Of a stretch of 47,462 nt of DNA, positions 16,379-44,964 are shown piece after piece (position 1 is the first letter of the stretch; each line of letters starts with the position of its first letter). The stretch comes from Acidobacteriota bacterium (GTDB taxonomy: Bacteria > Actinomycetota > Actinomycetes > S36-B12 > CAIYMF01), in NCBI GenBank assembly GCA_025449595.1, contig JANWJC010000105.1:1-47462 (forward strand), in the 5' to 3' direction. A program made the translations under genes and the position numbers. Under the pieces are notes generated by a model that saw only the letters and a program-made list of their open reading frames with translations, did no database searches and was not told the DNA's origin.

Positions 16379-16498
16379 CAACCCCTCCTCGGCACGATGG
16401 CGCAACAACCTGAGCCGGAATGTTCGATCCGTGCTCAAAAACCCTTTGAACACAACAAACAACACCTTTGGAGTTCGATGTCGCCCGGCGTTGTCGGG

Positions 16499-28262: not shown

Positions 28263-28321
28263 CCCGGGGCGGCAGCCGCAGAGCCGCGGTCTCGACACGT
28301 ATCCTCGCGCTAGGGCACGCT

Positions 28322-28933
28322 TCAGTCGATTCTCGTGCCCAAGAGGTACCTCACCGTCTGCCATATCACGCGAAGGGTTGCTGCCATCGACGGGTCGGCC
28401 AGGTACGTGAGGTCACAACGGACCCTGGCAGGCACCAGCACCTCGAGGTAGTAGCGCTCAGGGTCGGCGTCCGACCCCAGGACAGCAAGGTCCCGAAACC
28501 GGATCTGCGTCGGCCCGGTCAGGCCCGGGCGGTAGTCGAACACCCATCGGTACGCGTCGGGATAACGAGCTGCAAGCGGCAGTGTCTCTGGCCTAGGCCC
28601 GACAAGTGTCATGTCTCCGCGTAGCACGTTCACCAGCTGGGGGAGCTCGTCCAGACTTGATCGTCGAAGTACGCGGCCCATCCTGGTGACCCGGCCGTCG
28701 GAGGCTGACGTCACCTGCGGCCCGGAGGTGGCCGTGCGCATCGATCTGAACTTGCACAGGGTGAAGGGCTCACCGCCTTCTCCGACGCGCGTCTGACGGA
28801 ACAGGGCCGGACCGCCATCCGACAGCCTGATCAGAACTGCGATGATCACCAGCAGCGGGGCCAGCAGCACCAACCCCGCAGATGCGGTCAGGACGTCGAA
28901 CGTCCGACGCAGGAACCCAACCCCCGGTGTCAT
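28322..28933 (-). CDS. Small monotopic phosphoglycosyl transferase (bacterial sugar transferase family, PglC/WbaP-C-like); initiating enzyme
   Basis: Start trimmed to the ATG at 28933, 2 nt after the upstream stop. Motifs: DVLTASAGLVLLAPLLVIIAVLIRL, GPALFRQTRVG, FTLCKFRSM, DELPQLVNVLRGDMTLVGPRP. Confidence 0.85.
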   Translation of the reverse strand: MTPGVGFLRRTFDVLTASAGLVLLAPLLVIIAVLIRLSDGGPALFRQTRVGEGGEPFTLCKFRSMRTATSGPQVTSASDGRVTRMGRVLRRSSLDELPQLVNVLRGDMTLVGPRPETLPLAARYPDAYRWVFDYRPGLTGPTQIRFRDLAVLGSDADPERYYLEVLVPARVRCDLTYLADPSMAATLRVIWQTVRYLLGTRID

Positions 28934-28935
28934 GC

Positions 28936-30051
28936 TCACCCGGTCCCTGCTGCGACGAACACCGTCGACATCACCTGTGTCATGGCGCCCACGTCGGCCG
29001 ACAGTCCGATTTCCAGAGAGCTCGGGGTCATGTGTGTCCACAGGTCTGCTCCCTGCTGGCGTCGTGACAACAGTGCCGCCCACAACGCATTGTCGGCGAG
29101 CCCGGGATTCATCAGCCGCACCACCTGACCCTGGTACACCTGCCTCCAGGTCCAGATGTCGACAGCCCGGGCACCCTCGGACAGGGGAATGTCCACGAAG
29201 GTGTGCACATCCGCCTCAGCGGTTGCGGCATCACCGAGATAGTCACCGGGGAATGCCAGGGCCTTCCTCGCTTGCAGTCGAACCTCGCTCCCCCACCCAC
29301 GGCGAGCCACCTCTACCCAGGCCTGCCGCATGGCGTCGTCGCGACTTACCCCAATGCTCTGGTACTCGGAGTCCGGTCGAAGGCCGGCGCTCAGATCGAG
29401 AACATCAATGTCGCCGCTGGCCAGGTAGCCGTCGACCGCAGTCATTGTCGCCGCCGGAGTCAGTTGTTCCTGAGCCTGTGCGCACGCTTGCGGCCACGCC
29501 CCGAGATCCGTACTACCGGGTAGGCATCCGAGGTCAGGGACGACCATGTCCACAAGGATCTTCGTATGCGGGAGCCGAGCATGCAGGGCGGTGGCGGCGG
29601 CATCCAGGAATGCCTGCACCGCGGCAGGGCTCGTGAGCCCATCCCGGTACCCCAGCTCGTCTGCGATCTTCACCCCGTCCACGCCTGGCATGCTTGCCAT
29701 AGCCGCGACGACAGCAACCGTGGACCTGAAGGCCGAAGGCCCCTGGAGCCAACGCTTGACAAGGTCGGTCTCCACGTAGACCCGAGCACCGTCCGCAACC
29801 ACGGCTTTGATCGCGGCGACGTAGGCTGCGCCCGGTCGCACCGCGACGGGGTCCGCGGGGGTCGTGGGGCTCGATGTGTTCATGGGGGTATCTATCGCCG
29901 GCGAGGCGTACCTGGGCGGACCAGGTGAAGTGGGACTCGCCGTCGAAGCAACCGATTCCGGCCCCTGGTGCGCGCAAGCGCACAGCAGGGACAACACCGC
30001 CAGCCCGACAACCCTTCGGAGCCAGCAGCGAGAAGCCCCGTCGCTACGCAT
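28936..30051 (-). CDS. Exported protein with a Cys-containing signal peptide (possible lipoprotein), function unknown; possibly a TIM-barrel glycan hydrolase
   Basis: The ATG at 30051 overlaps the flippase stop (ATGCGTAG). Signal peptide: MRSDGASRCWLRRVVGLAVLSLLCAC. The hydrolase idea rests only on alternating beta-strand/Asp-Glu patterns, so it is weak. Confidence 0.5.
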   Translation of the reverse strand: MRSDGASRCWLRRVVGLAVLSLLCACAHQGPESVASTASPTSPGPPRYASPAIDTPMNTSSPTTPADPVAVRPGAAYVAAIKAVVADGARVYVETDLVKRWLQGPSAFRSTVAVVAAMASMPGVDGVKIADELGYRDGLTSPAAVQAFLDAAATALHARLPHTKILVDMVVPDLGCLPGSTDLGAWPQACAQAQEQLTPAATMTAVDGYLASGDIDVLDLSAGLRPDSEYQSIGVSRDDAMRQAWVEVARRGWGSEVRLQARKALAFPGDYLGDAATAEADVHTFVDIPLSEGARAVDIWTWRQVYQGQVVRLMNPGLADNALWAALLSRRQQGADLWTHMTPSSLEIGLSADVGAMTQVMSTVFVAAGTG

Positions 30052-31351
30052 CGCCCGACGCAAGGACGACGGCGCCGGCCTGGGAGCGCGCTGGTTTCGA
30101 CGACCGCAGCAGCATCGCGATCAGGAAGAGATCGGCTGTCAGGTAGGCCACGGTGGACGCCACTGCCGCGCCCATCGCGCCGTGGGCGGGGATCAGCAGG
30201 AAGTCCAGCAACACGGTCAGTGCGAGTCCGAAACCGAGCGCCAGCGAGTTCATACCAGGTCGACCGGTCCCATACAGGTAGGCGGTCGCCAACCCCGCAG
30301 CACCCTGGAGAACCAGCCCTCCCAGCAGGATCCACGTGAGGGCGACCGCAGACCCGAACTCTGCGCCATAGAGAGCCGGAAGCAGCCGCCCAGCGGCCAC
30401 CGCAAGAAGTACCCCTGCCAGAACGTTCCAGAGAATCGCCCGTGGAACAAGACCCCTCACCGACTTGGCGACCTGCTCCTGTCCCTGTCGTGCGATGCGC
30501 GGGTACATCACCCACGTGATGGCGAGACCTGGCAACCGCAGCAGTTCGGCGTACTTGGAGGCCACGGCATAGACGCCGAGGGTGGCAGGTCCAGCGATAG
30601 CGCCAAGAACGGCAAAATCGAGGCGAAGGTTGAGCAGTCCGACGATCCCTCCGACCTGGCCGCGGATCCCAAAGTTTGCGATCTCGGCGATCAGAGGCAG
30701 CCGCACCCGGCGGATGACAAACTTGCCGCTCCGTCTGGCGATCCGGAGCCAGGCGTACCCAGAGACCGCGACATCCGCAACGAGGAGCGCCCAGATGATC
30801 AAGCCCACCTCCCGGGCACCGAACGCCCAAAGCACGGCGTACGCGGGAAGAAACACCAGCTCCTCCAGGCCGATCACGACGTTGGTGCCCCGCATGTCCT
30901 CCAGTCCCTGCAGAACACCCTTCCCGACTGCCACCGGAAGTTGCGTGAAGACCGTGAAGCCGGCAAGCGCTACCGCCGGAATGCTGATCGAACTGAAGAA
31001 CACCCGGTGGAGCATCGGAGTCGCCGCGAGCCACACCAGGGTCCCGACAACTCCACCGCCCAGCATCAGGACGACGATCGCCTGCATCATCCCGGGCTCG
31101 TGCCGTCGCGGCCCAGCCAGGTAGAAGGCAGTCGCGCTCGGTAGCCCGCATGCGGCGAGCACGCCGAACAGTCCGGGCAGCACTCTGAGCAACGCGTACG
31201 CCCCGACACCGGCGGCCCCCCCGGTGCGCGCTACCAGAATGGTCGCGACGCCGAGAGCGACCAACGCGACCACCCGTGCAACGACGTTGGCGACGACCTC
31301 CCTGCCCGGCTCCCGCCTGACGCTGCGCATAGCGTTGGCCAGACTCATCAT
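30044..31351 (-). CDS. wzx: MOP-superfamily oligosaccharide flippase (Wzx-like)
   Basis: Start trimmed to the ATG at 31351 (ATGA overlap with the upstream stop). It is about 435 aa and polytopic (12 or more TM segments), with a polysaccharide-biosynthesis-protein-like pattern. Confidence 0.6.
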   Translation of the reverse strand: MMSLANAMRSVRREPGREVVANVVARVVALVALGVATILVARTGGAAGVGAYALLRVLPGLFGVLAACGLPSATAFYLAGPRRHEPGMMQAIVVLMLGGGVVGTLVWLAATPMLHRVFFSSISIPAVALAGFTVFTQLPVAVGKGVLQGLEDMRGTNVVIGLEELVFLPAYAVLWAFGAREVGLIIWALLVADVAVSGYAWLRIARRSGKFVIRRVRLPLIAEIANFGIRGQVGGIVGLLNLRLDFAVLGAIAGPATLGVYAVASKYAELLRLPGLAITWVMYPRIARQGQEQVAKSVRGLVPRAILWNVLAGVLLAVAAGRLLPALYGAEFGSAVALTWILLGGLVLQGAAGLATAYLYGTGRPGMNSLALGFGLALTVLLDFLLIPAHGAMGAAVASTVAYLTADLFLIAMLLRSSKPARSQAGAVVLASGDA

Positions 31352-32637
31352 GTCTGCACCCGGCTTCTCGCTCGCCCCCAGATCTGCAGGCCCGCCACCA
31401 GCCCGAAGAGCGCCCAGACGTGGCGGAAGTGCAGGACCTCGTAGAACGCGCTGGAGACGAGGACGATGCTCAACGCACCCAAAAGCATCTGAGGAGAGGG
31501 TACGAGGGCTGCATACTCTCGGCGAACGGGGCCGAGGAGCAGCGCCCCCCCGCGCCGTAGCACCGAGCCGAGGAGCAGCAGCAGACCGAATGCCCCGATG
31601 ATTCCGCGCTCGACGAGTGATGCGGTGTAATCGCTGTGCGCCTCCTTCACATAGGGAGCGAAATTGTTCGTCAGCCACGTCTTCGTCTCGTCAGGGCCGA
31701 TCCCGAGGAGGCCAGCCTGTTCGTACAGAGCCGAGGTTTCATGGAACAGCGTCGACCTGCTTCCGCTGCTCTCTCCGCCTCGTCCGAGCGAGTCCTGGAG
31801 CAGTGGGCTGGCAACGGCGGCCCGTTGCTCCACCGACACCAGGTTGATGGCCGGCACGATCACCGCGAGCACACAGATGCCCGCGGCGACAACAGAGATC
31901 GCAGTAACTGGACCACGGGCTCTCCACAGCCACGCCACGGCCGACACCACGACCGCGACTCCCGTGCTGACCAGTCCCCCGTTCGACCCTGTCAACGCAG
32001 CAGCGAGCAGCAGGACCGCCGCGGTCAGGAATCGCAGGCGAGGGCTTCGAGGCCGATGGCAGGCCAGCACCACGAACAGCGAGATCAGAAAGTAGTCGGC
32101 CGCCAAGTTTGGGTCACCGAGGGTCCCCTGCACCCGGCCCGCATTGTCCGCACGAATTCCGGACAAAGGGCTGAAGCCGACCAACGTCGCGAGTTCGATG
32201 GCTGTCGCCCATGCCAAAGCCGACCAGCACCACGTCCCGATGAGCACCCGAGCGGCTCGCGGGTGGCGGAGAACATTGGCAAGCGCCGCACCCCAGGCGA
32301 ACACGAGCAGGTCCTGTGACATCGCCAAGATGGTCGTACCCTCCCCGCGTACGAGGGCGGCGAGGGAGCCACCGAGCAGCAGCAGTCCCATTCCAAGTAG
32401 ATAGGGGAGTCGGATCTGCAGGCGCTCGCGCACGAGCCATCCGGCGGTCACCGCAACACCGACCAATATCGGTATGTCGACCGGTGCGGAGTTGCCAGGT
32501 AGTACGGGAACCAACAGAGGCAGGGTCGCGATGGCCAGAGCGAGTATGACTACCACGATCCTCGGTGGCTCGCGCCGGTCGGCTATGTCGGCGCTGCGCC
32601 TGTCCTCCAACCCAGGTGCAGCCGCGAGGGCCGTCAT
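31348..32637 (-). CDS. wzy: O-antigen polymerase/ligase family membrane protein (Wzy-like)
   Basis: Start trimmed to the ATG at 32637 (ATGA overlap). It is about 429 aa and polytopic, with a large loop in the C-terminal third as in the Wzy_C family. Confidence 0.55.
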   Translation of the reverse strand: MTALAAAPGLEDRRSADIADRREPPRIVVVILALAIATLPLLVPVLPGNSAPVDIPILVGVAVTAGWLVRERLQIRLPYLLGMGLLLLGGSLAALVRGEGTTILAMSQDLLVFAWGAALANVLRHPRAARVLIGTWCWSALAWATAIELATLVGFSPLSGIRADNAGRVQGTLGDPNLAADYFLISLFVVLACHRPRSPRLRFLTAAVLLLAAALTGSNGGLVSTGVAVVVSAVAWLWRARGPVTAISVVAAGICVLAVIVPAINLVSVEQRAAVASPLLQDSLGRGGESSGSRSTLFHETSALYEQAGLLGIGPDETKTWLTNNFAPYVKEAHSDYTASLVERGIIGAFGLLLLLGSVLRRGGALLLGPVRREYAALVPSPQMLLGALSIVLVSSAFYEVLHFRHVWALFGLVAGLQIWGRARSRVQT

Positions 32638-33647
32638 CTGGCCACTCCGGAGGTAGCGAGCAGCTCTGAGAGAAGGCTCAGGTGCAATCGCGCGAACGAG
32701 TCCTGGTCGGATCGGATCGCGATCTCCGCCAGGCCAAGGAGAGCGGCAGCACGCCAGAGCTGCGCTGGGAGGCCGAGCGACTCGACGGCCTCGGTCAGGA
32801 ACCGCTGGACCAGATCGGGATACCAGCCGCGTCCGGTGAGTGCCCAGCGCAGCCCGTCGCCCCACCGACCCGCACGCAGACCGCGGTGACCGGCCACGGG
32901 GTGTCCCTGGCGGGTATGACGGTCGAGATAGAGGGAGTAGGACAGAACGAAGCGAGCCCAGTCCCGGAGCGGGTTCCCGATGGCATCAGCGTGCTCCCAG
33001 TCGACGACTCCGCTCACGCGCGAGCCGCTCGCCAAGATATTGCCGCACCAGAAGTCTCCATGAACGACAGCCCCAAGGGACGAAGTAAGCGAAGCCTCGA
33101 TCTCTCGGAGCGGTCCAAGGACGGGACTCAGTTCGGACCTGTCAGGCCATCGGTCGGACAGGAGGCAGGACCAGGGATCGCGACGGTCCGTGGACATGGT
33201 CTCTTGCCGGCGCAGGCAACGGAGCCAGGCACGAGCGGTAGCGAAGTCCTTCTCGACGAGCGCCTGTCGCCCCGTGTGGCGCCACGCGTGGTAGGCGACC
33301 GACATCGGCGTGCCAAGGAGCACGTCAGTCACCATCGCCGGCAAACCCTGGTGTTCCAGCACGGCCAGCAACCGTGGCACGGTGGATTCTGCAGCGCCGA
33401 GCTGCGAACGGTCCAGAGATGACAGGAAGGCTGCCTCGCGCAGGACGCTCTGCCCTGCCCGATCTGTCATGGCCAGCTTGACGGCAACGGTCGGCTGGTG
33501 TGCGCCGTCAGGCACCAGCAGCATTGTGACTTTCGGGTTGTCGTCCTTCGACGCCGCAATGATGATCACCTGCGACCCAGGTGCGACCCGCGCTGCCAGC
33601 AGTTGGCCGGCCCCCGCGGAGCGTCGAAGCACGTCGCTGGTAGTCAT
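32634..33647 (-). CDS. Aminoglycoside-phosphotransferase-fold (APH/choline-kinase-like) kinase
   Basis: Start trimmed to the ATG at 33647 (ATGA overlap). The Brenner motif HGDFWCGNIL is followed by VVDWEHA. Confidence 0.7.
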   Translation of the reverse strand: MTTSDVLRRSAGAGQLLAARVAPGSQVIIIAASKDDNPKVTMLLVPDGAHQPTVAVKLAMTDRAGQSVLREAAFLSSLDRSQLGAAESTVPRLLAVLEHQGLPAMVTDVLLGTPMSVAYHAWRHTGRQALVEKDFATARAWLRCLRRQETMSTDRRDPWSCLLSDRWPDRSELSPVLGPLREIEASLTSSLGAVVHGDFWCGNILASGSRVSGVVDWEHADAIGNPLRDWARFVLSYSLYLDRHTRQGHPVAGHRGLRAGRWGDGLRWALTGRGWYPDLVQRFLTEAVESLGLPAQLWRAAALLGLAEIAIRSDQDSFARLHLSLLSELLATSGVAR

Positions 33648-34111
33648 CTGACTCGTCCGAGGGCCAAACGCTGCGGTAGCACCGCGCTGAGAACACCGGG
33701 CGGCAGGCGTCGAGCCAAGGAGATGGCCAGGTAGGCGGGGCCTGCCGACCAGGCAGCGCCGGGCGGGACGGTCAGGTAGTTGCGCCAGCTCCACAGCATC
33801 GTGGTCGAGCTGTCCTGCACCACTATGACGGGACTGTCGAGCGACGGAAGGACTACATATTCGTCGACAAGCTCTACCCCGGCATTTTGGAACATGCGAC
33901 GAATACGGCGACGACTGCCCAACCGTCCATCAGCAGCCGCGACCACGGTGCCCGGCGATGCTTCCGAGATGCGACGGTTGGCAATCGCCGTGCTGCTCCG
34001 TCCACCTGTGAGACGTATCCGAATACAGTCGTCGGGGACCAGCACGGACAGAGCAGGTTCGGCAGCAGCGAAGGGGGAGCCGTCGACCTCGAGCGTCAGC
34101 CGGCGCGTCAC
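33644..34111 (-). CDS. Hypothetical 155-aa protein, translationally coupled to the APH-fold kinase
   Basis: A GTG at 34111 lies just downstream of the GT4 stop (TAA 34119-34117). The rest of the 307-aa track ORF overlaps the GT4 gene out of frame. No family was recognised. Confidence 0.4.
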   Translation of the reverse strand: MTRRLTLEVDGSPFAAAEPALSVLVPDDCIRIRLTGGRSSTAIANRRISEASPGTVVAAADGRLGSRRRIRRMFQNAGVELVDEYVVLPSLDSPVIVVQDSSTTMLWSWRNYLTVPPGAAWSAGPAYLAISLARRLPPGVLSAVLPQRLALGRVR

Positions 34112-34116
34112 CGACC

Positions 34117-35295
34117 TTACGCCGCCCTCGACGGGGTACCAACTGGCTCGGAACCGTATGCCTCTTCCAGCACTCGCCCGAGCGTCGCAGGTACGTAACG
34201 GTCTCCTATCTGCAAGCGGCCAAGTTCGGCCATCCGTGCGGTCTGGTCCGGCTTGTCCAGCATGTGCTGGATCGCCCTGGCAAGTAGGTCGGGGCGCGCA
34301 GGCGGCACCAACAACCCGGTAACACCGGGGACCACTACGTCGGACACACCGTTCACCGCTGTCGCAACAACCGGCAGGCCGCACATCTGAGCCTCGAGAA
34401 CAGCGCACGGCAAGCCCTCGTACCGACTGGCCATCGCGAAGATGTCGAATGCCGGCAGCAGCTCCGGCACGTTCGCGCGTTCCCCGAGGAGCCGCACGCG
34501 ATCCGCAACTCCATGGCGAGCAGACCAACGCACTGCATCCTCGGCCAGCGGGCCACCCCCGATCCACACCAGGATCGTCTCGCGGTCACGGAGCCTGGCG
34601 AGGGCCTCTATCATGTGCTCAGGCGCCTTCTGGTAGTCCAGCCGACCAACGGTGCCGACGACGGGGGTGTTCGGGCCGATTCCCAGTGAGGTTCGAGCGT
34701 GCTGCCTCGACGTTGGATTGACGCGAGCGATACCGAAGTCGATCGCGGGACCGATCGTCCTGATGCGCGCGGGATCCGCAATCCCCCGTCTGATGGCCTC
34801 CACGGCAACCCCTGTTCCCACCGCGAAGAAGAAGTCCGTAATTCTCGCCAGACGCTGTTCGCACAGCACGTATGCACTACGCCGTGGCCACGACTGAAAC
34901 TCGTGGAAGGGAAAACCGTGGAAGGTATGAACGATACGCGGGACACCTGCCCGATGGGCAGCGACCCGCCCGAGTGCGCCCGCCTTGGCGCTGTGGGTGT
35001 GGACAACGTCGAACTTTCCTTCCGACAGCAGGGCCGTGAGCGTCCCGAGTGCTGAAAAGTCCTCTCGCGGGCTGATCGGCGAGACCAGCTCTGGCACGAG
35101 GATCACCTCGAAACCCGCATCACGTGCGCTGTCGAGCAGCCGGTTCCCACTACCCGCGATCACCGTGACCTGGTTGGCAGATGGGTCGAGGGCCGCCGCG
35201 CCATATAGGGCTACCCCTCCTGCACCGGCCATGAACCGTGTGACGACCTGCGCCACCCGGCGCGGCCGACTGCGCCCGCAGAGTTCGGTCAGCAT
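34117..35295 (-). CDS. GT4-family (GT-B, group 1) glycosyltransferase
   Basis: Start trimmed to the ATG at 35295. The EX7E-type block SRYEGLPCAVLEAQMCGLPVVAT is present, with an N-terminal GGV/H..F.G donor-acceptor domain pattern. Confidence 0.8.
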   Translation of the reverse strand: MLTELCGRSRPRRVAQVVTRFMAGAGGVALYGAAALDPSANQVTVIAGSGNRLLDSARDAGFEVILVPELVSPISPREDFSALGTLTALLSEGKFDVVHTHSAKAGALGRVAAHRAGVPRIVHTFHGFPFHEFQSWPRRSAYVLCEQRLARITDFFFAVGTGVAVEAIRRGIADPARIRTIGPAIDFGIARVNPTSRQHARTSLGIGPNTPVVGTVGRLDYQKAPEHMIEALARLRDRETILVWIGGGPLAEDAVRWSARHGVADRVRLLGERANVPELLPAFDIFAMASRYEGLPCAVLEAQMCGLPVVATAVNGVSDVVVPGVTGLLVPPARPDLLARAIQHMLDKPDQTARMAELGRLQIGDRYVPATLGRVLEEAYGSEPVGTPSRAA

Positions 35296-38205: not shown

Positions 38206-38371
38206 AGCAACTCAATCCCTCCATCGGAGATACACACGGTAGGTCGACGTCGTACGGTCGGGCATCAGCCAGGGAGACGAGGCGACGTACGCCGATGGTG
38301 GTGTCGCCTACCGCGCCGAGACGCCGGGGTAGTCGCCGGTCGGGACCTGGCTCTTCGCTGTGCCCGTCGCT

Positions 38372-39961
38372 CTACGTGCGGCTGGGAGCGAGTGGACGAA
38401 CCTTCAGGGGGGAGCATCGCGCGTTGAGGCACTCCCCTGATTCCAGGTCGAACTCGAAGTTGTGCCCAAGGCACCGCAGGACTCCGTCGGACAACACCGC
38501 CGATTCCGACAGATCCTCACCCGCATGGGGGCAATACCTGCTCACGGCGACATCTCGGTCCCTAGTCCGATCCCTCAACACCACCATGTCGTCTGGATCT
38601 CGACCGGTCTCGTACTCCTCGATCGCTGCCAGTGCGGAGGGGTCAGCATGCTTGAGTAGACCCACCAGGTAGTCGTTGTACAGGTCTGGTTCACGCCAGG
38701 CTGAGAACCGTAGGGACAGGAAAAGATCTTCCCAGCGGATCTCTCCCGTGAGTACCGCATCCAGCCATCGGGCCTCGACCGCGAAACCGTAGCTCGCCAG
38801 TCGCCCCTTTGCTCGGTCCACCCCTACCCCATCCGGCCCCAGCCGCACATCCCAGGTGCCTCCCGCATCACCGGCCACCTCGAACCGCACAGTCATGCCG
38901 ATCCGCTCGAGGAAGTAGTTGCTCATGCCACCGAGGCGCATGAAGTGATCTTCGAAGCGTTCATAGAGCGCTGAGCCAGAGGGCGGATCGGGGTACCGGG
39001 CGTACGTCGCACTGATGTCGTCACTACGTTGGCGGGCATAGCGGTCCAAGTAGTCATCGCAGTCGTCGAGGCTGAAGTCAGCCCATTCAGGGCTACGGGT
39101 CACGGCCTCGCTGCCAAGCTCTATCGCATCTCCTGGCAGCAAACACAGAGCGCTCTGCTCAGGTATTCGCTCCTGCAACCAGGTCAGTGCCTGTCCCTGG
39201 TGCGGGAAGACGCCCGGCTCGCGCATCTGGAGATTGTGACGGCGGAGCGAGTCGTCGAGAAAACACGGCGGCCCCGCATACGGCAGTACCAACCGCGGTC
39301 GTACCCCGCGCAGCATACGCACTACAGCTCGGAACTTGGACCGACGCTTGTCCGCGCCGATCCGCGCCGACACGTCCGAAGGGTAGTCGTAGCATATCGG
39401 ATGCCAGGAGGCACCCGACATCTGCACACCCATCAAGTCGAGCTGGTGGCCGACCTCTTCCGACGCTCGCCTTCCCTGGCTGACGGTGAGCCGCGCGTCG
39501 TTCGTATGCATGATCGCGAATCCATTGACCACGACAAGGATCGCAGCGTCGTGACACATCGGCGACTGCTCGGGGATCACCGTCAGCCAGTCACCACCCG
39601 GATTCAGCTGCAGCCGTTCCCACGCTCCCACCTCGATGACGTTGCGGACCCCTGCTCGGGCGAGTCGCCCCCGCAGTACGCCGGAGGGATAGCGCGGAAT
39701 CACAACCCGAACACGGTCCGGGAGGGTAGGTAACAGATCCAGGTCAAGGTGATCCAGATGCTCGTGGGAGACAGCCACCCAATCACAGTCAAGCATCTGC
39801 TTCGTCGCCAGATGACTGTTGTCCGGGAATGGGAACCAGCTGCCGAGGAACGCTCCCCCCTTGGACAGCCATGGATCGCACAGCACTCTCACGCGCGAGG
39901 TCTCGATCCGCAACCCCGCATGTCCAAGCGACGTCACAAATGGCGCCTCCCGCGAAGACAT
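38372..39961 (-). CDS. MBL-fold (Lactamase_B_3/UlaG-like) domain fused to a C-terminal Rieske [2Fe-2S] domain; NamH/CMAH-like candidate sugar-nucleotide hydroxylase
   Basis: The N-terminus is LGHAGLRIE...VLCDPWL...VAVSHEHLDHLD. The C-terminus is YCPHAG...LRCLGHNFEF (CxH ... CxxH Rieske ligands). Confidence 0.65.
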   Translation of the reverse strand: MSSREAPFVTSLGHAGLRIETSRVRVLCDPWLSKGGAFLGSWFPFPDNSHLATKQMLDCDWVAVSHEHLDHLDLDLLPTLPDRVRVVIPRYPSGVLRGRLARAGVRNVIEVGAWERLQLNPGGDWLTVIPEQSPMCHDAAILVVVNGFAIMHTNDARLTVSQGRRASEEVGHQLDLMGVQMSGASWHPICYDYPSDVSARIGADKRRSKFRAVVRMLRGVRPRLVLPYAGPPCFLDDSLRRHNLQMREPGVFPHQGQALTWLQERIPEQSALCLLPGDAIELGSEAVTRSPEWADFSLDDCDDYLDRYARQRSDDISATYARYPDPPSGSALYERFEDHFMRLGGMSNYFLERIGMTVRFEVAGDAGGTWDVRLGPDGVGVDRAKGRLASYGFAVEARWLDAVLTGEIRWEDLFLSLRFSAWREPDLYNDYLVGLLKHADPSALAAIEEYETGRDPDDMVVLRDRTRDRDVAVSRYCPHAGEDLSESAVLSDGVLRCLGHNFEFDLESGECLNARCSPLKVRPLAPSRT

Positions 39962-40013
39962 GTCTTCTCCCCATTGAGTGTCGGGACCATCGCACTTCGC
40001 ACCCGGACGTGAA

Positions 40014-41489
40014 TCAGTGCAGAACCGCCATCGGTCGCATTCGCGCTACGGGACGCACTAGTCCGAACCCGCTCATGATCTGGAGGGCGGCCGCGACACC
40101 CTTGTCGTCCAGGTGCGGGACAGTCGTCGGAGCCCGGTCGTCGTAGCGGAACCTCATCGTCGACCGAGCCTGCGGATCACTGGTAGAGAGTCCTGAGCGC
40201 TCGAAATGATCGATCACAGTGCCGGCACCGTGGCAGGCGGAGTGCAAACTCGTGGCGGAGTCCTTTCCTGCAACGGCAAGGTACGACGAGGTGCGATGTG
40301 TCCCGGGCAGCAGTACAGCCTGCCCTGTGCGGGCAAAGGTCGTGCCAACAGGCATCCGATCGCCAGGATACGCACGGCACGAGTTGTGCCGGTGAACTAC
40401 CCCTAACTGGCCATCGACCTCCTCCTCGTAGACCGAGTTGTGCGGGGAGTCAACGACGAGACGAGCTTGACCGCCGCCGAAGACCCGAGTGGCCAGGCGT
40501 TGGAGCGCAGCATACGTGGAAAGGCGGAACGCGAAGCCATAGTTCATCGCTGCGGCGTTTGCCAGCATCAACCGCTGCCCCTCGTCGCTAGCAAGCTCGA
40601 CGGGAGGACACCCCTTAGAAAAATACAGCCGTAGGCGCTCCTGAAGCTGATCCTTCGAACGCGCCGTTCGAAGATGGTACAGCGGTTTGCTGACCGCCAT
40701 GACTGCTCTCATCGAGCGTGCGTAGTCCTCGCGACGACCGAAAAGATGGCCGACGATGCCGGTCATGACCCCGCCACCTGCGTGGTACTGGATCATGGTC
40801 TGCCCCAGCCGCACCCCGAGGGCAGCAGCCCGTTCCTCGTCAATGATCTCCTCGACCTGCTGCAGCTCGACGAAGTGGTTCGTCGGACCTATCGTGCCGA
40901 ACCGCAACCGCGACAGGTGCCACGCCAGGGCGGGCATCTCACGGATCAACCGCTCCTTCCCGCCATATGGTTCCAGGTCGACGAGCCCGCTCTCCTCGAC
41001 CCGCTCCAGTTCCGCAGCGTCGACCCCGAATCGCGCGGCGGCGAATTGAGCGCCGCCGACGGCAGTTCCCACCGCCTCACTTCTTGTGAGCTCGCGACCA
41101 CCACGGGTCGGGTAGGGGTATCGCTCCCTGACTGCACGGAAGAACTCTCCGATCGCAGCATCCGTGGGACGCTCACAGTCCAGCGAGATCAGCGCCATGC
41201 CGCAGTTGAGCGACGAGCTCGTCAACGTCGGCCGAATGGTGCCAACAGTCGCCACGGCGATGCTGGAAGGCATCTCCATGTTGGACTTGTGGTGAAAGTC
41301 CGGAAGCACGACCGGCGGCGCCAGGAGATCGAACCCGAGCGTTGCCGATCGGAGTTCGCCGAGCGCCTCGGGGTCGGCGGGCAAATCTCTGCTGTCGAAT
41401 ACCCGCGGTGTGTCGAGTTCGGACTCGAGACTTCGCCGATGCGACATCTCTTCAGCCGACAGGACCCTTATGTCCATCGATTTCCTCAT
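40014..41489 (-). CDS. Divergent RtcB-family (3'-phosphate/5'-hydroxyl ligase fold) protein
   Basis: Ordered blocks are LPDFHH, SLNCGM, GTIGPTNHFVE, YHAGGG, DSPHNS, LLPGTH, SACHGAG and a C-terminal VARMRPMAVLH. These parallel the E. coli RtcB blocks MPDVHLG, DIGCGM, GTLGTGNHFIE, LHSGSRG, CHHNY, IPGSMG, SCSHGAGR and ...VCVKG, recalled from memory. Confidence 0.65.
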   Translation of the reverse strand: MRKSMDIRVLSAEEMSHRRSLESELDTPRVFDSRDLPADPEALGELRSATLGFDLLAPPVVLPDFHHKSNMEMPSSIAVATVGTIRPTLTSSSLNCGMALISLDCERPTDAAIGEFFRAVRERYPYPTRGGRELTRSEAVGTAVGGAQFAAARFGVDAAELERVEESGLVDLEPYGGKERLIREMPALAWHLSRLRFGTIGPTNHFVELQQVEEIIDEERAAALGVRLGQTMIQYHAGGGVMTGIVGHLFGRREDYARSMRAVMAVSKPLYHLRTARSKDQLQERLRLYFSKGCPPVELASDEGQRLMLANAAAMNYGFAFRLSTYAALQRLATRVFGGGQARLVVDSPHNSVYEEEVDGQLGVVHRHNSCRAYPGDRMPVGTTFARTGQAVLLPGTHRTSSYLAVAGKDSATSLHSACHGAGTVIDHFERSGLSTSDPQARSTMRFRYDDRAPTTVPHLDDKGVAAALQIMSGFGLVRPVARMRPMAVLH

Positions 41490-41494
41490 GGTAA

Positions 41495-43003
41495 TCAGTA
41501 GTCATCCGGATACGGCGCCAGATCCGGTACGGCAGCAATCTTCGGACCGTGGTAACCAGGGACGAGTTGTTCTAGCATGCGGAGGACGTCGGATCGCCTG
41601 TTAGCGTCCGCCTCATCGAGCAGGTCGGCGAGCTTCCCATGGAAGTCCCTACCAACGTCGTGCAGACAAGTCTTGAAGATGCGCGGATGAGCAGTGCTCA
41701 CGACAACCTCGTTCTCGCCGAACAGCCTTTCGTTGAGCTTCTCCCCCGGTCTCAGGCCGGTGAACCTGACTCTGGCTGGGGGAACTCCCATCTGCTCAGA
41801 GAACTTGTGCACCAGATCAAGGATGCGCACCGGTTCACCCATGTCGAGAACGAACGTCTCGCCGCCGTCCGCCAACAGTGCCGCCTCAAGGACGAGTCCC
41901 ACTGCTTCTTCGATCGTCATGAAGAAGCGCGTGGCGTCCGGATGCGTCACAGTCACGTCATCACCGTTCCGCAACTGCTCCGCGAGAACCACGAGGAGGG
42001 ATCCACGGCTCCCGAGCACATTGCCGAACCTGACAGCGGAGAAGACCGTCTCAGTCGGGCCCATGTTCTTGATCGTGAGCTCGGCCAGGTGCTTCGTCGC
42101 ACCAAGTACTGACGTGGGATCGGCCGCCTTGTCGGTGGAAATGAAAACGAACAGTGAGGAGCCGTACTCCGCTGCTGCGTTGGCTAGCAACTGGGTGCCC
42201 AGTACATTCGACTTCACCCCCTCGCAGGGATGGCTCTCAAGCATCGGCAGATGCTTCAGCGCGGCCGCATGAAATACCACATCGGGCCGAACGTCGCGGA
42301 ACAACTGCCTGATTCGTCGACCGTCACGAATGTCCGCGACGACCAGTTCTTCACTGCTCATGAGTGCCTCACCGGAGATCTCGAGCTGCATCCGATGAAG
42401 GTTCGACTCGTCATGGTCGAGCATCACCAATCGAGCCGGGGAGAATCCGAGCACCTGACGGCACAGCTCACTCCCGATCGATCCGCCGGCTCCAGTCACG
42501 AGGACGACCTTGTCGCGAATCACGGCCGCGACAGCTGGGGAGACCACGTTCATCTCCGCACGACCGATCAGCTTGCCGATCTCGAGCGCCCGCATGTCGG
42601 TACCGACAACGTCACGCTGCAAAGCAGCCACGAAGGTTGGCAGGTGACGGACGCGTACCCCGGAAGCGGCGGCGATCACCGCCAGACGGCGGACCTCCGT
42701 CGCCGGGAGGCGGGGGATCGCCAGCACGACGCACTGCACGCCGAACTGGACGATGACCTCGGTGAGGGAGCCGACGTCCCCCAGCAACGGCAGTTCCGCG
42801 TGGGCTCCCTTCGCCAGGTCGTCGTCGAGGAACCCGATCGGGGCGAGGCCGAACTGTGGGACTGCAAGCAGGTCGCGCGCGAGCGCCCTGCCGGCCTCAC
42901 CGGCTCCCACCACCAGAGTAGGCAGACCGGGCACCTGATCGAGCTTCTCGGATCCATATTCGGCGGGCCACAAATCGGCCAATCCCTCTTCAATCAGACT
43001 CAT
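41495..43003 (-). CDS. CapD/PglF/WbpM-type NDP-sugar (UDP-GlcNAc) 4,6-dehydratase, soluble form without the N-terminal TM region
   Basis: Start trimmed to the ATG at 43003 (ATGA overlap). Motifs: VLVTGAGGSIGSEL, VFHAAALKHLP, FISTDKAADPTSVLGATKHLAE. Confidence 0.8.
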   Translation of the reverse strand: MSLIEEGLADLWPAEYGSEKLDQVPGLPTLVVGAGEAGRALARDLLAVPQFGLAPIGFLDDDLAKGAHAELPLLGDVGSLTEVIVQFGVQCVVLAIPRLPATEVRRLAVIAAASGVRVRHLPTFVAALQRDVVGTDMRALEIGKLIGRAEMNVVSPAVAAVIRDKVVLVTGAGGSIGSELCRQVLGFSPARLVMLDHDESNLHRMQLEISGEALMSSEELVVADIRDGRRIRQLFRDVRPDVVFHAAALKHLPMLESHPCEGVKSNVLGTQLLANAAAEYGSSLFVFISTDKAADPTSVLGATKHLAELTIKNMGPTETVFSAVRFGNVLGSRGSLLVVLAEQLRNGDDVTVTHPDATRFFMTIEEAVGLVLEAALLADGGETFVLDMGEPVRILDLVHKFSEQMGVPPARVRFTGLRPGEKLNERLFGENEVVVSTAHPRIFKTCLHDVGRDFHGKLADLLDEADANRRSDVLRMLEQLVPGYHGPKIAAVPDLAPYPDDY

Positions 43004-44199
43004 GCTCGTCCCCCTGCCTCGCTCAGTGCCTCGCACACAGTGTCGACGTCCCCAGTGTTGAGCATGGGATGCAGCGGCAACGACAGCGTGCGAGCAAATA
43101 CCTCATCTGCGCCTGGGAGTCCCTTCGGAGGTACTTCCACCCTCCCGGAGAACCAGCTCAGTCGGTGAAGCGGGATGAAATGGACTGATGAGCCGACCCC
43201 AGCCGCCGCTAGTCGACGGGAGAGTTCGTCGCGGGATATTCCGAAATCGTCGTTGATCCTTATCGCGTACAAGTGCCATGCGTGAACCGTGTCGGACGAG
43301 CGTGGCGGCAGCAGCACACCCTCCATGTGCCCGAGGCGCAGATCATACTCGGACGCGAGCCTTCGCCGGTCCTCATTCCAGCACGCTACCTGCTTCAACT
43401 GGGCTCGCCCGATCGCAGCCTGCAGGTCGGTCATGTTGGCCTTAAGACCATCAGCAGCGACGTCGTAGTTCCATCCGCCGCCGGGGAGGTAACGCCGCCA
43501 TGCATCTTTGGTCATCCCGTGCAGGCGCGCGGCATGCACAGCGTCCGCGAACTCTTCATCGGCCGTCGTGAGCATCCCGCCTTCGCCGATGGGCAGGTTC
43601 TTTGTTGCATAGAAGCTGTAGCAGGTAGCTCGGGACAACGCTCCGACATGTCCGTCTTGTGTCAAGGTTCCGAGCGCATGGGCTGCGTCCTCGATGACCA
43701 TGGTCAACGGCAGATGGGCTGCAGTCGCGAGCTCTCGCACGTCGGCTGCGAGTCCACCCAGGTGGACTACCACCATTGCAGCAACACCACCTGCGCGAGC
43801 GGCAGCCACCTCAGTAGTCGCCGCACTCGGCATTCCTGATTCGACGTCGACGTCGACAAGCACCGGGATGTGCCCTGCGTGCATGATGGCGTGTGCCGCA
43901 CCGCAGAACGTGTTGGCAGAGAGCAGCACCTTACTCGCCGGCGCCAACCCCAGCGAACGCACGGCCAGTTCGAGTGCCGCGGTGCACGAACTGACAGCCA
44001 CCGCCCGCGGAGCGCTTACGTACCCCGCAAACTCCCGTTCGAACTCTGCTACCTGCTGTCCGGTCGTGAGCCAACCCGACGACAGGACACCGACGGCCGC
44101 CTCACGCGCCTCGTCGCAAACTGGCGTTCGGGCGAACGCCACCGGTCGGGCGACGCGAACTTCCTCTGTCAGGGCCAGCGTCGACACGGCTCCGGCCAC
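43000..44199 (-). CDS. DegT/DnrJ/EryC1/StrS-family PLP sugar aminotransferase (PglE-like)
   Basis: SSGWLTTGQQVAEFEREFA and the catalytic Lys block FYATKNLPIGEGGML. The start is uncertain (GTG 44199 or downstream GTGs). Confidence 0.85.
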   Translation of the reverse strand: MAGAVSTLALTEEVRVARPVAFARTPVCDEAREAAVGVLSSGWLTTGQQVAEFEREFAGYVSAPRAVAVSSCTAALELAVRSLGLAPASKVLLSANTFCGAAHAIMHAGHIPVLVDVDVESGMPSAATTEVAAARAGGVAAMVVVHLGGLAADVRELATAAHLPLTMVIEDAAHALGTLTQDGHVGALSRATCYSFYATKNLPIGEGGMLTTADEEFADAVHAARLHGMTKDAWRRYLPGGGWNYDVAADGLKANMTDLQAAIGRAQLKQVACWNEDRRRLASEYDLRLGHMEGVLLPPRSSDTVHAWHLYAIRINDDFGISRDELSRRLAAAGVGSSVHFIPLHRLSWFSGRVEVPPKGLPGADEVFARTLSLPLHPMLNTGDVDTVCEALSEAGGRA

Positions 44200-44286: not shown

Positions 44287-44964
44287 TCATTGGCGGGAGC
44301 CGGCGTGCGTCGGCACCAAGCCGAGAAGCCCCGTTTCGCGCGCACGGGCGACGGCGGACAGTGACGAGTGAACGCCAAGTTTCTGAAGTACCCGTTGAAC
44401 ATGCGTCCGTACCGTATTTTGCGAGAGTTGGAGCTGCCGGGCGATCTCTGCCCGGCCCATGCCGTCCACCATGCAGCTCAGGACGTCGATCTCACGGGGA
44501 GTCAGCCCCACGAGCGCCGCGGGATCATATTTGCCCGACTGTCGGGTGAGTATGTTCAAGACTCGTGTCAGCAAGCGTGCCGGAATGTATGTCTCGCCAC
44601 GCTGTGCTCCCCGGATCACATGAAGCAGCAGATCTATGGAAGCATCCTTGGGCACCCATCCCGACATTCCCAGGCGTGCCCCTTCAGCGACGAAGCTCTC
44701 GTCTTGCACACCAGTCACAAAGACGATGTGGACATCGGGCCGGCGTTGCAGGAGGTCCTCCCCAAGAGTTAGACCAGTTGTCCCGGGGGAATATCCGAGA
44801 TCATAGTCGATTACCGCGACATCCACCTTCAGGTGATCGACCATGCCAGCCACGCCGTGCTCGCTGAACGCGACGACGACGACGTCCATGTCCGGTTCGA
44901 GACTCAGGCGCGCTGCCAACGACTCCGCGAACACGACGTGATCGTCGACGACGGCAACTCTCAT
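44287..44964 (-). CDS. NarL/LuxR-family response regulator
   Basis: The receiver is MRVAVVDDH...VAVIDYDLG...FVTG...PKD. The C-terminal HTH is LTPREIDVLSCMVDGMGRAEIARQLQLSQNTVRTHVQRVLQKLGV. ATG at 44964 is preferred over the track GTG at 45015. Confidence 0.85.
   Translation of the reverse strand: MRVAVVDDHVVFAESLAARLSLEPDMDVVVVAFSEHGVAGMVDHLKVDVAVIDYDLGYSPGTTGLTLGEDLLQRRPDVHIVFVTGVQDESFVAEGARLGMSGWVPKDASIDLLLHVIRGAQRGETYIPARLLTRVLNILTRQSGKYDPAALVGLTPREIDVLSCMVDGMGRAEIARQLQLSQNTVRTHVQRVLQKLGVHSSLSAVARARETGLLGLVPTHAGSRQ

Follow-up and report, generated by a model that had tools for sequence, protein, structure and literature searches.

Loci of the Wzx/Wzy type for polysaccharides (O-antigen, Gram-positive capsule, Psl) are hypervariable; they are co-directional, tightly packed operons that encode a polyprenyl-phosphate phosphoglycosyl transferase (PGT), a Leloir glycosyltransferase (GT), a Wzx, a Wzy_C-family protein and a two-TM PCP-like protein. 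Enzymes of the APH and protein-kinase folds add phosphate to lipid-linked glycan sugars (KdkA, WaaP) or to anomeric positions (NahK, AmgK). The RNA-repair ligase RtcB works through His-GMP and then an RNA(3')pp(5')G intermediate; to our knowledge all RtcB enzymes characterised so far have nucleic acid substrates, and we know of no described role for it in sugar polymer synthesis. NamH, the N-acetylmuramic acid hydroxylase, is Rv3818 (PMC10050696), and in M. tuberculosis the adjoining gene, Rv3817, encodes a putative APH-type kinase (PMC9489181).

The window analysed here is a metagenome contig of 47,462 nucleotides. Its positions 28322–44199 are one copy of a fixed actinobacterial gene set, present in at least 180 species, that includes a relative of RtcB, termed the cassette in what follows. 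The 13 co-directional genes, all on the minus strand, appear to form a translationally coupled operon for a surface sugar polymer:

43000–44199, minus strand: DegT/PglE-type PLP sugar aminotransferase, 399 aa (PF01041, 319 bits)
41495–43003, minus strand: CapD/PglF-type UDP-HexNAc 4,6-dehydratase, 502 aa (PF02719, 326 bits)
40014–41489, minus strand: RtcB-family enzyme of a divergent subfamily, 491 aa (PF01139, 148 bits)
39962–40013, minus strand: 52-nt gap, 5' of the NamH gene
38372–39961, minus strand: NamH-family hydroxylase, 529 aa, MBL (UlaG-like; PF12706/PF13483), SCP2_Rv3818 (PF25451) and Rieske (PF00355) domains
38206–38371, minus strand: 166-nt intergenic gap, 3' of the relocated NamH gene
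36256–38205, minus strand: PCP-like (Wzz/Wzc-type) membrane protein, 649 aa, two TM segments (14–32 and 234–252)
35289–36263, minus strand: HprK-like P-loop kinase, 324 aa (P-loop GPGGTGKS)
34117–35295, minus strand: GT4 glycosyltransferase, 392 aa (PF00534, PF13439 and related families)
33644–34111, minus strand: U155, 155 aa, predicted accessory module of the APH-like kinase (fusions, gene adjacency)
32634–33647, minus strand: APH-fold (protein-kinase-like) small-molecule kinase, 337 aa (PF01636, E 2e-13)
31348–32637, minus strand: Wzy_C-family membrane protein, 429 aa (PF04932, E 6e-12; about 8 or more hydrophobic segments)
30044–31351, minus strand: Wzx-type flippase, 435 aa (PF13440; about 12–14 hydrophobic segments)
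28936–30051, minus strand: exported lipoprotein, predicted TIM-barrel fold, 371 aa (conserved signal peptide and lipobox)
28322–28933, minus strand: PglC-type small monotopic PGT, 203 aa (PF02397, 180 bits)

The initial annotation had described this unidirectional 13-gene operon with its pervasive overlaps, and every gene, overlap and gap was reproduced at its coordinates. Its family assignments, among them one initiating PGT, one GT4, a Wzx, a Wzy and a PCP, were upheld by Pfam and NCBIfam searches, the last two as a Wzy_C protein and a PCP-like protein. ATGA overlaps of 4 nt lie at 43003/43000, 33647/33644, 32637/32634 and 31351/31348, overlaps of 8 nt at 36263/36256 (GTGACTAG) and 30051/30044 (ATGCGTAG), and one of 7 nt at 35295/35289; gaps are 2 nt at 28936/28933 and 5 nt at both the CapD–RtcB and GT4–U155 junctions. 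The only larger gaps, of 52 and 166 nt, bracket the NamH gene, which is the sole gene placed differently from all 40 reference loci described below. The 166-nt gap has no match in an Rfam search and shows no folding beyond that of shuffled sequence (z = 0.36); GGAGG is found in it 13 nt 5' of the PCP GTG start. The same cassette was recovered from four assemblies, and independent gene calls in further assemblies of this organism yield proteins of 155, 337, 429, 435, 392, 324, 529, 491 and 502 aa, the lengths in the window.

A scan with the RtcB homologue matched 182 species, from which 80 loci were kept, all 80 in Actinomycetota. Presence was counted in the 40 species with a locus that includes the cassette's two ends; since RtcB was the query, its own presence in 40/40 follows from selection. 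The HprK-like kinase, GT4, APH, Wzy, exported protein, PGT and aminotransferase are present in all 40 complete loci, CapD and Wzx in 39 each, PCP in 37, U155 in 34 and NamH in 32. Counts below 40 are put down to low similarity or locus ends; the eight loci missing NamH are cut there by the locus end. The cassette is rigid across at least eight actinobacterial families and occurs in two gene orders with equal content of 13 genes, a pattern that speaks for functional coupling. The 13 genes usually come with a histidine kinase and LuxR-type regulators.

Such regulators also lie upstream in the window, followed by a secreted protein:

44287–44964, minus strand: NarL/LuxR-type response regulator 1 (PF00072 and PF00196), low GC
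45016–45702, minus strand: NarL/LuxR-type response regulator 2 (PF00072 and PF00196)
45699–46334, minus strand: short cytoplasmic histidine kinase, 211 aa (PF02518, weak HisKA match)
46591–47462, minus strand: PKD-domain secreted protein, 3' part, frame open to the window end
28263–28400, no strand: left compositional boundary, at the convergent junction with an ABC-transporter gene

Response regulator 1 has a match in 33/40 cassette loci and the histidine kinase adjoins the cassette in 27/40; because of this co-occurrence in most loci, the two-component genes are probably part of the unit. The start of response regulator 2 and the stop codon of the kinase, a protein in which no sensor domain or TM segment was found, are involved in a 4-nt overlap. 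The PKD-protein gene runs off the contig end. In related loci, Pel9A-like/NosD beta-helix and PKD proteins are encoded inside or beside the cassette.

The RtcB homologues are 60–78% identical across Actinomycetota. Aligned with P. horikoshii RtcB, the cassette protein keeps D64, C96, N204, H205, H236, H350 and H420 (in the HGAG motif). Asp95 of the P. horikoshii enzyme is replaced by Ser93, invariant in all members, and Arg408 by Thr424. Since Asp95 is a canonical Mn2 ligand, activity may differ or need another metal. All NCBIfam RtcB equivalogs score far under cut-off for this protein, and the gene tables of the examined loci list no rtcA, rtcR or archease gene.

The MBL-Rieske protein, previously left unassigned, can be placed in the NamH/Rv3818 family (N-acetyl to N-glycolyl hydroxylase) from its domains and its motifs, HEHLDH and CPH-X17-CLGH. 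JGI names many homologues 'UDP-MurNAc hydroxylase', and homologues of 56–58% identity are again located in the cassette. Its substrate, we infer, is probably a UDP-HexNAc derivative made by the cassette itself; the enzyme could serve peptidoglycan instead. The aminotransferase has PseC as its top NCBIfam match (279 bits, under the equivalog cut-off), and the dehydratase carries an N-terminal CoA_binding_3 domain, with PseB and FnlA matches under cut-off.

The HprK-like protein matches TIGR04352, ScmC and HprK structures weakly; 11/29 of its orthologues match Pfam Hpr_kinase_C (best E 4e-7), and its gene is immediately 5' of GT4 in 39/40 complete loci. The APH-like kinase has the Brenner motif HGDFWCGN with K57 and D216 invariant, and its closest solved relatives, weakly matched, are hygromycin, viomycin and macrolide kinases. 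U155, with no match in Pfam, NCBIfam or PDB searches, is rare (134 representatives among 1.84 billion proteins). It lies immediately 5' of APH wherever detected, and some copies are fused, as U155-APH, PGT-U155-APH or Wzx-PGT-U155-APH; these fusions turn what had been a 155-aa unknown into a likely partner or domain of the APH-like kinase. Because both kinase-like proteins retain catalytic motifs, the initial suggestion of a phosphorylated repeat unit is plausible; proteins or small molecules, and not the glycan, could be the substrates of both.

The GT4, the cassette's only Leloir GT, has TIGR03088 and MshA-like as top NCBIfam matches, both under cut-off, and the PGT has a single N-terminal hydrophobic helix, a DE dyad and a PRP motif. 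The Wzy_C protein is by sequence alike a polymerase, a ligase or an O-oligosaccharyltransferase. Homology of the PCP-like protein to PCP is weak overall: around TM2 its family profile has matches to PslE (E 8e-6) and Wzc (2e-4), and there is a weak TIGR03007 match. Its cytoplasmic tail is long and low-complexity, and from about 36900 to 36256 a codon-position GC signal is absent. The exported protein had no match in Pfam, NCBIfam or PDB sequence searches; all named members among its 574 listed homologues are 'hypothetical protein', and 0/574 have a recorded Pfam domain. Its signal peptide and lipobox mark it as a lipoprotein, and its AF2 model, a (beta/alpha)8 barrel (pLDDT 87.3) with only generic TIM-barrel fold matches among structures (TM 0.3–0.4), is a confident prediction of a TIM-barrel fold.

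We consider it fairly probable (about 0.65) that the cassette is a conserved actinobacterial system that builds a surface glycan of short repeats via Wzx/Wzy, with polyprenyl phosphate as the carrier, as follows. Judging from enzyme families, the dehydratase and aminotransferase would convert UDP-GlcNAc to a UDP-4-amino-4,6-dideoxy-HexNAc, whose 4-amine would be free or otherwise modified since the cassette has no N-acetyltransferase, and the NamH-family hydroxylase would convert N-acetyl to N-glycolyl on a UDP-sugar. The PGT would initiate the lipid-linked unit, to which the single GT4 would attach a second sugar; Wzx would flip the unit, the Wzy_C protein polymerise it and the PCP-like protein set chain length. 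Outside the membrane the TIM-barrel lipoprotein would process or transfer the polymer, as may a beta-helix/PKD protein in relatives. More tentatively, the APH-fold kinase, working together with U155 at the membrane beside the PGT, and the HprK-like kinase might add phosphate to hydroxyls on the lipid-linked sugar, the newly made glycolyl OH being one candidate. The proposed role of the RtcB homologue, similarly tentative, is RtcB-type chemistry on a sugar phosphate: it might self-nucleotidylate on His420 and pass the NMP to a phosphomonoester of such a sugar, with a phosphodiester sealed to a hydroxyl, or an NDP-linked product, as the outcome. The dedicated histidine kinase and two NarL-type regulators would control expression.

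Composition bears on how the cassette came to be here. The initial annotation had called the DNA A/T-richer from spot counts of 35 and 48 G+C, both exact, and window and codon calculations agree: GC is 0.705 in 1–28321 and 0.650 in 28322–44199, and GC3 is 0.69–0.78 in the 13 cassette genes against 0.888 +/- 0.028 in 16 flanking core genes. The step is sharp at about 28300–28400 (0.708 in 28000–28399, 0.660 in 28400–28799), just past the ABC transporter gene end at 28262. Low GC extends upstream through the two response regulators and the histidine kinase to about 46000, so that the compositional unit exceeds the span first proposed. At the contig end GC is near 0.66–0.67; the right compositional boundary lies beyond the contig. 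In other genomes cassette GC is not below the flanks in 49/51 (mean +0.016); low GC is thus particular to this genome, in keeping with recent acquisition, and on composition alone the cassette was probably acquired here by horizontal transfer. The nearest known cassette (RtcB identity 77%) has a GC of 0.71 and so points to no donor. The proposal of an acquired locus therefore stands for this genome, where the DNA is compositionally foreign, but not as a variable, ad hoc island.

The earlier picture was that of an ordinary O-antigen- or capsule-like island varying between strains, with the RtcB, NamH-like, kinase and orphan genes as passengers or lineage decorations of an accessory locus; the GC below flanks and the classical Wzx/Wzy/PGT/GT core would suit it. 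The synteny survey has largely refuted it: about 40 species of many families keep the full set of 13 genes despite rearrangement, cassette GC elsewhere equals or exceeds that of the flanks, and the exported-protein and U155 families are found essentially only with the cassette, which leaves it very improbable. Low GC might instead reflect chimeric assembly of the metagenome contig, or relaxed codon selection acting on a native locus. The metagenomic source, the step falling exactly at a convergent gene junction, the nearest known cassette not being GC-poor, and the finding of no integrase, tRNA or repeat in the window, nor any other mobility gene among the window proteins scanned, are in keeping with this. 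It is nevertheless unlikely, given the uniform GC3 shift across 18 kb and 16 genes and the four assemblies that agree on the cassette. Moreover, SucD and RtcB are each recorded, identical to those of the window, on a 62,176-bp contig, and one contig of MAG GCA_036553885.1 is equally long, which suggests that core and cassette are also joined in a second assembly. SucD has no cluster mate at >=90% identity, so close relatives of the organism are absent from the databases.

That the RtcB homologue acts on RNA (transcript or tRNA repair, or regulation) and is merely co-regulated, the glycan chemistry having no RtcB step, accords with the known nucleic acid targets of RtcB and with clear family membership, the nucleotidyl-His and most metal ligands being intact. 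We doubt it, because glycan genes accompany the query in 40/40 complete loci in both orders, RtcB follows CapD by 5 nt, the Asp to Ser change is invariant, and the equivalog scores and gene tables given above point the same way. General O-linked protein glycosylation of the Neisseria pgl type would have a lipid-linked di- or trisaccharide made by the dehydratase, aminotransferase, small PGT, GT4 and flippase and then transferred by the Wzy_C protein, as a PglL-like OTase, to secreted proteins such as the PKD neighbour. The enzyme list does parallel PglD/C/B/A/F/L, there is a single GT, O-OTases also fall under Wzy_C (PF04932), and a Ser/Thr-rich PKD protein is a frequent neighbour; yet a PCP-like chain-length protein with profile matches to PslE and Wzc is present in 37/40 loci, the beta-helix (Pel9A/NosD-like) neighbours point to a polymer as substrate, and an acetyltransferase for diNAcBac is lacking, so that we rate it quite unlikely.

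The preferred reading, a polymer made via Wzx/Wzy, sets the cassette beside several known systems. It shares the features of Wzx/Wzy loci listed at the outset; unlike them it has content fixed across families, one GT and no BY-kinase, LCP ligase or outer-membrane export protein, and it always carries the RtcB-, NamH-, HprK- and APH-like genes and two orphan families. With bacillosamine/AATGal-type pathways (PglF-PglE-PglD-PglC; B. fragilis PSA WcfR/WcfS) it has in common a CapD/PglF-type dehydratase, a DegT aminotransferase and a small monotopic PGT; lacking a PglD-type N-acetyltransferase, it comes nearer to the AATGal type with its free amine, and with scores under all NCBIfam equivalog cut-offs no stereochemistry is assignable. 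The hydroxylase has the domain architecture of NamH (Rv3818, M. smegmatis namH) with intact HxHxDH and Rieske motifs, and is encoded in or abutting a Wzx/Wzy cassette, whereas Rv3818 stands with peptidoglycan functions. Like KdkA, WaaP, NahK, AmgK and the HprK-like tailoring kinases of lasso peptides, the cassette kinases would perform ATP-dependent hydroxyl phosphorylation (of glycan, sugar or peptide) within a biosynthetic cluster. No specific sequence relationship to these is detectable, the nearest solved relatives of the APH being antibiotic kinases at weak E-values, and the separate 155-aa partner is unique to the cassette APH family. Finally, the RtcB homologue shares the PF01139 fold with the P. 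horikoshii, E. coli and human (RTCB) enzymes and retains the GMP-histidine and the equivalents of Cys98, His203, His234, His329, Asp65 and Asn202; it differs from the RNA 3'-phosphate ligase in its Ser and Thr replacements and in being an obligate member of a glycan operon.

The window, a metagenome contig of 47,462 bp, comes from an actinobacterium with high GC. The region at 28322-44199 holds 13 genes, all on the minus strand; the positions given in the initial annotation are exact. Pfam and NCBIfam recognise a DegT aminotransferase, a CapD/Polysacc_synt_2 dehydratase, an RtcB homologue, a protein with MBL, SCP2_Rv3818 and Rieske domains (here termed NamH-like, 38372-39961), a GT4 enzyme, an APH-fold kinase (32634-33647), a Wzy_C protein, a Wzx-type flippase and a small Bac_transf phosphoglycosyl transferase (PGT, 28322-28933). 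Four window proteins are without a significant Pfam match: a Wzz/Wzc-type membrane protein (PCP-like, 36256-38205), an HprK-like protein, a 155-aa protein (U155, 33644-34111) and an exported lipoprotein (Exp, 28936-30051). Gene lengths are the same in independent gene calls from three other assemblies of the same organism. The junctions quoted earlier are all correct. Seven of them overlap, four through ATGA, two by 8 nt and one by 7 nt, and the gaps comprise three of 2-5 nt and two larger ones of 52 and 166 nt. A regulatory RNA in the larger gaps was considered and rejected: there is no Rfam match, and for the 166-nt gap the predicted folding does not exceed that of shuffled sequence. Promoter and terminator scans gave matches at or below chance.

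More than 1,500 proteins are related to the RtcB homologue; for the 120 best, identity is 64-78%. One genome per species was scanned for this protein, yielding 182 matches, from which 80 loci were retained; all 80 belong to Actinomycetota. The carriers are Terrabacter, Intrasporangium, Terracoccus, Humibacillus, Pedococcus, Nocardioidaceae, Marmoricola, Kribbella, Dactylosporangium, Nonomuraea, Streptosporangiaceae, Jatrophihabitans, and Pseudonocardiales, Frankiales and Mycobacteriales MAGs. All window proteins were searched against the retained loci, and genes were counted in the 40 species with both cassette ends in the locus.

Cassette genes found by tblastn in 40 species
HprK-like, GT4, APH, Wzy, exported protein, PGT, DegT: 40/40 loci
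RtcB: 40/40 loci (the query that selected the loci)
CapD, Wzx: 39/40 loci
PCP: 37/40 loci
155-aa gene: 34/40 loci (the gene is poorly conserved)
NamH-like gene: 32/40 loci (the remaining loci end before the gene)

Two gene orders occur: order A, DegT-CapD-RtcB-PCP-HprK-GT4-U155-APH-Wzy-Wzx-Exp-PGT with NamH convergent at the end, and order B, PCP-DegT-CapD-HprK-GT4-RtcB-U155-APH-Wzy-Wzx-Exp-(NamH)-PGT. Three blocks are invariant, namely DegT-CapD, HprK-GT4 and U155-APH-Wzy-Wzx-Exp. That gene content is kept despite rearrangement is strong evidence for a joint function of all 13 products. The window has order A, but with NamH between RtcB and PCP, an arrangement common only to it and its nearest relative (77% RtcB identity); it is precisely this relocated gene that the 52- and 166-nt gaps flank. 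In the closest relative (locus L090) gene calling splits the NamH-like gene (11525-13119) into an MBL part and an SCP2/Rieske part, and truncation seems to affect several cassette genes; either noisy-assembly frameshifts or real decay could account for this. The region is a conserved actinobacterial cassette and not an ad hoc island. The earlier interpretation is partly supported: the glycan operon and, in this genome, the foreign composition hold; a variable accessory locus is not supported, the synteny check having found a fixed cassette in about 40 species.

The sliding-window composition check proposed with the initial annotation, whose spot G+C counts are exact, gives a GC of 0.650 in the locus versus 0.705 to its left; GC3 is 0.69-0.78 in the cassette versus 0.888 +/- 0.028 in 16 core genes. 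The step is sharp, at about 28300-28400. Low GC runs on upstream to about 46000, through two response regulators and a histidine kinase, and at the contig end GC is still about 0.66-0.67. Among 51 other genomes, 49 have a cassette whose GC is not below that of its surroundings (mean +0.016), and in the nearest relative it equals that of the flanks, 0.71. The 5.5-point deficit is therefore specific to the window genome and fits recent acquisition of the cassette there. No donor was identified, no tRNA was found in the window, and the scan of window proteins gave no integrase or other mobility gene. The contig ends before the right boundary is reached. A chimeric assembly could also produce such a step. 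It is unlikely, since SucD and RtcB proteins identical to those of the window are each listed on a contig of 62,176 bp, a size matching one contig of MAG GCA_036553885.1. The collection contains no relative whose SucD reaches 90% identity.

Low-GC genes upstream of the cassette
44287-44964, minus strand: NarL/LuxR response regulator
45016-45702, minus strand: NarL/LuxR response regulator
45699-46334, minus strand: short histidine kinase of 211 aa, without sensor or transmembrane domain

The histidine kinase and the two tandem regulators that follow it are co-directional with the operon, with an 87-nt gap to DegT. A response regulator and histidine kinase lie alongside the cassette in most loci, and the same trio or pair stands beside it in most other species. 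On the other side, 1-28262 is ordinary core (a metB-like gene, purH, sucCD, a DUF6350 gene, pcrA/uvrD, guaA and two ABC exporter genes), the second ABC gene being convergent with the cassette and 59 nt separating the stop codons. Two further genes lie in this housekeeping region. One, at 20238-21758 on the plus strand between pcrA/uvrD and guaA, encodes a DUF222 and HNH endonuclease of the actinobacterial '13E12-repeat' type, a type that is often mobile. The other is a 1,047-aa ORF at 13322-16465 on the minus strand; it has no Pfam match, its GC3 (0.89) is like that of the core genes, and the UvrD/PcrA helicase gene lies immediately downstream of it.

The RtcB homologue matches PF01139 with 147.9 bits against a cut-off of 27, and a PDB profile search with it matched PH1602 (E 8e-40). 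The nucleotidyl-histidine of the HGAG motif, His420, corresponding to His404 of the Pyrococcus horikoshii enzyme, is invariant in 19 sequences. In an alignment with P. horikoshii RtcB, the homologue keeps the equivalents of Asp65, Cys98, Asn202, His203, His234 and His329, and has Thr in place of Arg408. We take the two-Mn ligand set to be Asp95, Cys98, His203, His234 and His329 in P. horikoshii numbering; of these positions the homologue keeps Cys96, His205, His236 and His350, and Asp95 is replaced by an invariant Ser93. Scores against curated RtcB equivalogs are far below cut-off (NF007153, 77 bits versus 407; TIGR03073, 52 versus 272). To our knowledge RtcB is known only as an enzyme that joins nucleic-acid ends, and a full-text search, with subscription journals outside its coverage, found no paper that connects RtcB with glycan clusters or with NamH.

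The MBL-Rieske protein had been regarded as not assignable. Its domains are PF12706/PF13483, PF25451 (SCP2_Rv3818) and PF00355, and its motifs are intact (HEHLDH at residue 66; Rieske CPH-X17-CLGH at residue 477); the SCP2_Rv3818 domain and the motifs place it in the NamH family, and many of its homologues are named 'UDP-MurNAc hydroxylase' by JGI. NamH, Rv3818, converts N-acetyl- to N-glycolyl-muramic acid and has an N-terminal UlaG (MBL) and a C-terminal Rieske domain (PMC10050696). Homologues 56-58% identical to the window protein again lie within this cassette, so the cassette has its own NamH-type enzyme. Genomic context argues for a cassette-specific substrate rather than UDP-MurNAc for peptidoglycan, which would put an N-acetyl hydroxylase of this type outside peptidoglycan metabolism. 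In Mycobacterium tuberculosis the gene adjoining namH, Rv3817, encodes a putative APH-type kinase that confers no aminoglycoside resistance (PMC9489181); we treat the parallel with the cassette APH kinase as a lead only.

That kinase matches PF01636 with 51 bits (cut-off 23), with a Brenner motif, HGDFWCGN, at residue 196 and invariant D216 and K57. U155 has no Pfam, NCBIfam or PDB match, only 134 representatives in an exhaustive search of 1.84 billion proteins, and an uninformative single-sequence structure model (pLDDT 34.6). Several fusions were found (U155-APH, PGT-U155-APH and Wzx-PGT-U155-APH), which move this protein from the 155-aa unknown of the initial annotation to an accessory module of the APH kinase and indicate that the kinase works beside the initiating transferase. 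Natural cassette fusions are recorded in L001 16655-19435, P0435, P0452, P0416, P0457, P0461 and P0476; the first of these, from Terracoccus, has Wzy-Wzx as a single 926-aa protein, and in P0388 an NTP_transf_5 nucleotidyltransferase is joined to a U155-like segment. The HprK-like protein has a P-loop, GPGGTGKS, and, from an alignment read by eye, SDN in place of the ADD of HprK. Hpr_kinase_C (PF07475) is matched by 11 of 29 orthologues (best E 4e-7) and not by the window protein itself, which scores 24 bits against TIGR04352 (cut-off 200) and gives P-loop-level matches only in the PDB profile search.

The PGT (PF02397, 180 bits) has a DE dyad, a PRP motif and one re-entrant helix, and Wzx (PF13440, E 3e-8) has about 12-14 hydrophobic segments. 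The Wzy_C match (PF04932, E 6e-12) is to a family that spans Wzy polymerase, WaaL ligase and PglL OTase alike. The PCP-like protein has the two-TM topology of a polysaccharide co-polymerase and no Pfam Wzz match; its family profile matches PslE (8e-6) and Wzc (2e-4), with a weak TIGR03007 match. A Wzc-like modulator/kinase pair formed with the HprK-like protein is not favoured, the two genes being non-adjacent in order B. The window PCP-like protein, at 649 aa, exceeds its orthologues (about 430-485 aa) by about 165 aa. The last ~200 codons of its gene (36256-36900, minus strand) are without codon-position GC signal; they may encode a disordered or fast-evolving tail, or this may not be a genuine coding frame there.

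The exported protein has a conserved lipoprotein signal and a confident AlphaFold model (pLDDT 87.3) that is a (beta/alpha)8 barrel. The PDB profile search gave nothing, and the fold search only generic TIM barrels at TM 0.3-0.4 (pyruvate carboxylase CT domain, isocitrate-lyase family, sugar epimerases, a few GH5/GH10 enzymes); a hydrolase or transferase role is plausible. Large secreted Pel9A-like/NosD beta-helix and PKD proteins lie beside or inside the cassette in other genomes (L088 7254-9869, L089 7394-9943, L062 13158-15683, L090 3619-5148) and may be a depolymerase or epimerase for its product. In the window, a PKD-domain, Ser/Thr-rich ORF at 46591-47462 on the minus strand, open to the contig end, is the 3' part of a gene.

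From family membership a pathway can be proposed. CapD would dehydrate UDP-GlcNAc and DegT transaminate the product to a UDP-4-amino-4,6-dideoxy-HexNAc; the NamH-like enzyme would introduce an N-glycolyl group; the small PGT and the single GT4 would build a lipid-linked disaccharide, which Wzx, Wzy_C and PCP would flip and polymerise. The TIM-barrel lipoprotein would act on the polymer outside the membrane, as may the beta-helix and PKD protein in relatives. More tentatively, the APH-fold kinase would phosphorylate the lipid-linked unit, a role that the APH-PGT fusion supports and for which KdkA and WaaP are precedents; the HprK-like kinase may do so too. The RtcB homologue might then carry His-NMP-to-phosphate chemistry over to a sugar phosphomonoester, giving a phosphodiester or NDP-linked species. 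A pseudaminic acid pathway was rejected: PseB and PseC are the best NCBIfam matches but far below cut-off, and no PseF, PseG, PseH or PseI genes are present. Anti-phage defence was likewise set aside, seven cassette proteins having no PADLOC match.

The boldest reading is that an enzyme of the RtcB family now serves a substrate other than nucleic acid, applying His-NMP chemistry to a kinase-installed phosphate of a lipid-linked N-glycolylated amino-sugar and thereby making a phosphodiester or NDP-capped linkage in a cell-surface polymer; we give this a probability of about 0.35. That a glycan operon carries an RtcB paralogue both obligate and translationally coupled suggests new substrate chemistry for the RtcB fold, with phosphodiester or pyrophosphate formation on sugars as candidates. 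If the reading is true, the cassette encodes a previously undescribed, widely conserved actinobacterial glycopolymer pathway, and NamH-type N-glycolylation has a role outside peptidoglycan. The cassette also defines two orphan protein families, the TIM-barrel lipoprotein and the 155-aa kinase partner, and predicts that an uncharacterised surface polymer is shared among widespread soil actinomycetes, including Terrabacter, Intrasporangium, Kribbella, Nocardioidaceae, Dactylosporangium and Nonomuraea. Several carrier taxa are cultivable, which makes the hypothesis directly testable. The surprise lies in the recruitment of RtcB and NamH and in the breadth (182 species with RtcB matches, and full synteny established for about 40); the mechanism is offered as a hypothesis only.

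Set against known systems, the skeleton appears to be a Wzx/Wzy pathway with an AATGal/bacillosamine-type start. It differs from the diNAcBac (Pgl) pathway in that neither the 13 genes nor the gene tables for four related loci (L001, L003, L088, L089) include an acetyltransferase, of the PglD type or any other, so the sugar would resemble the free-amine AATGal type, not diNAcBac. The NamH-like enzyme shares with NamH the same architecture of MBL (UlaG-like), SCP2_Rv3818 and C-terminal Rieske domains (PMC10050696). Compared with canonical RtcB RNA ligase, the RtcB homologue has the PF01139 fold and the HGAG histidine, but an incomplete two-Mn ligand set and no equivalog match. What is new is the constant accessory set of RtcB-like, NamH-like, HprK-like and APH-like proteins with U155 and the orphan lipoprotein; the whole is best seen as a new, conserved form of the Wzx/Wzy glycan system in which the RtcB component may have a non-RNA substrate.
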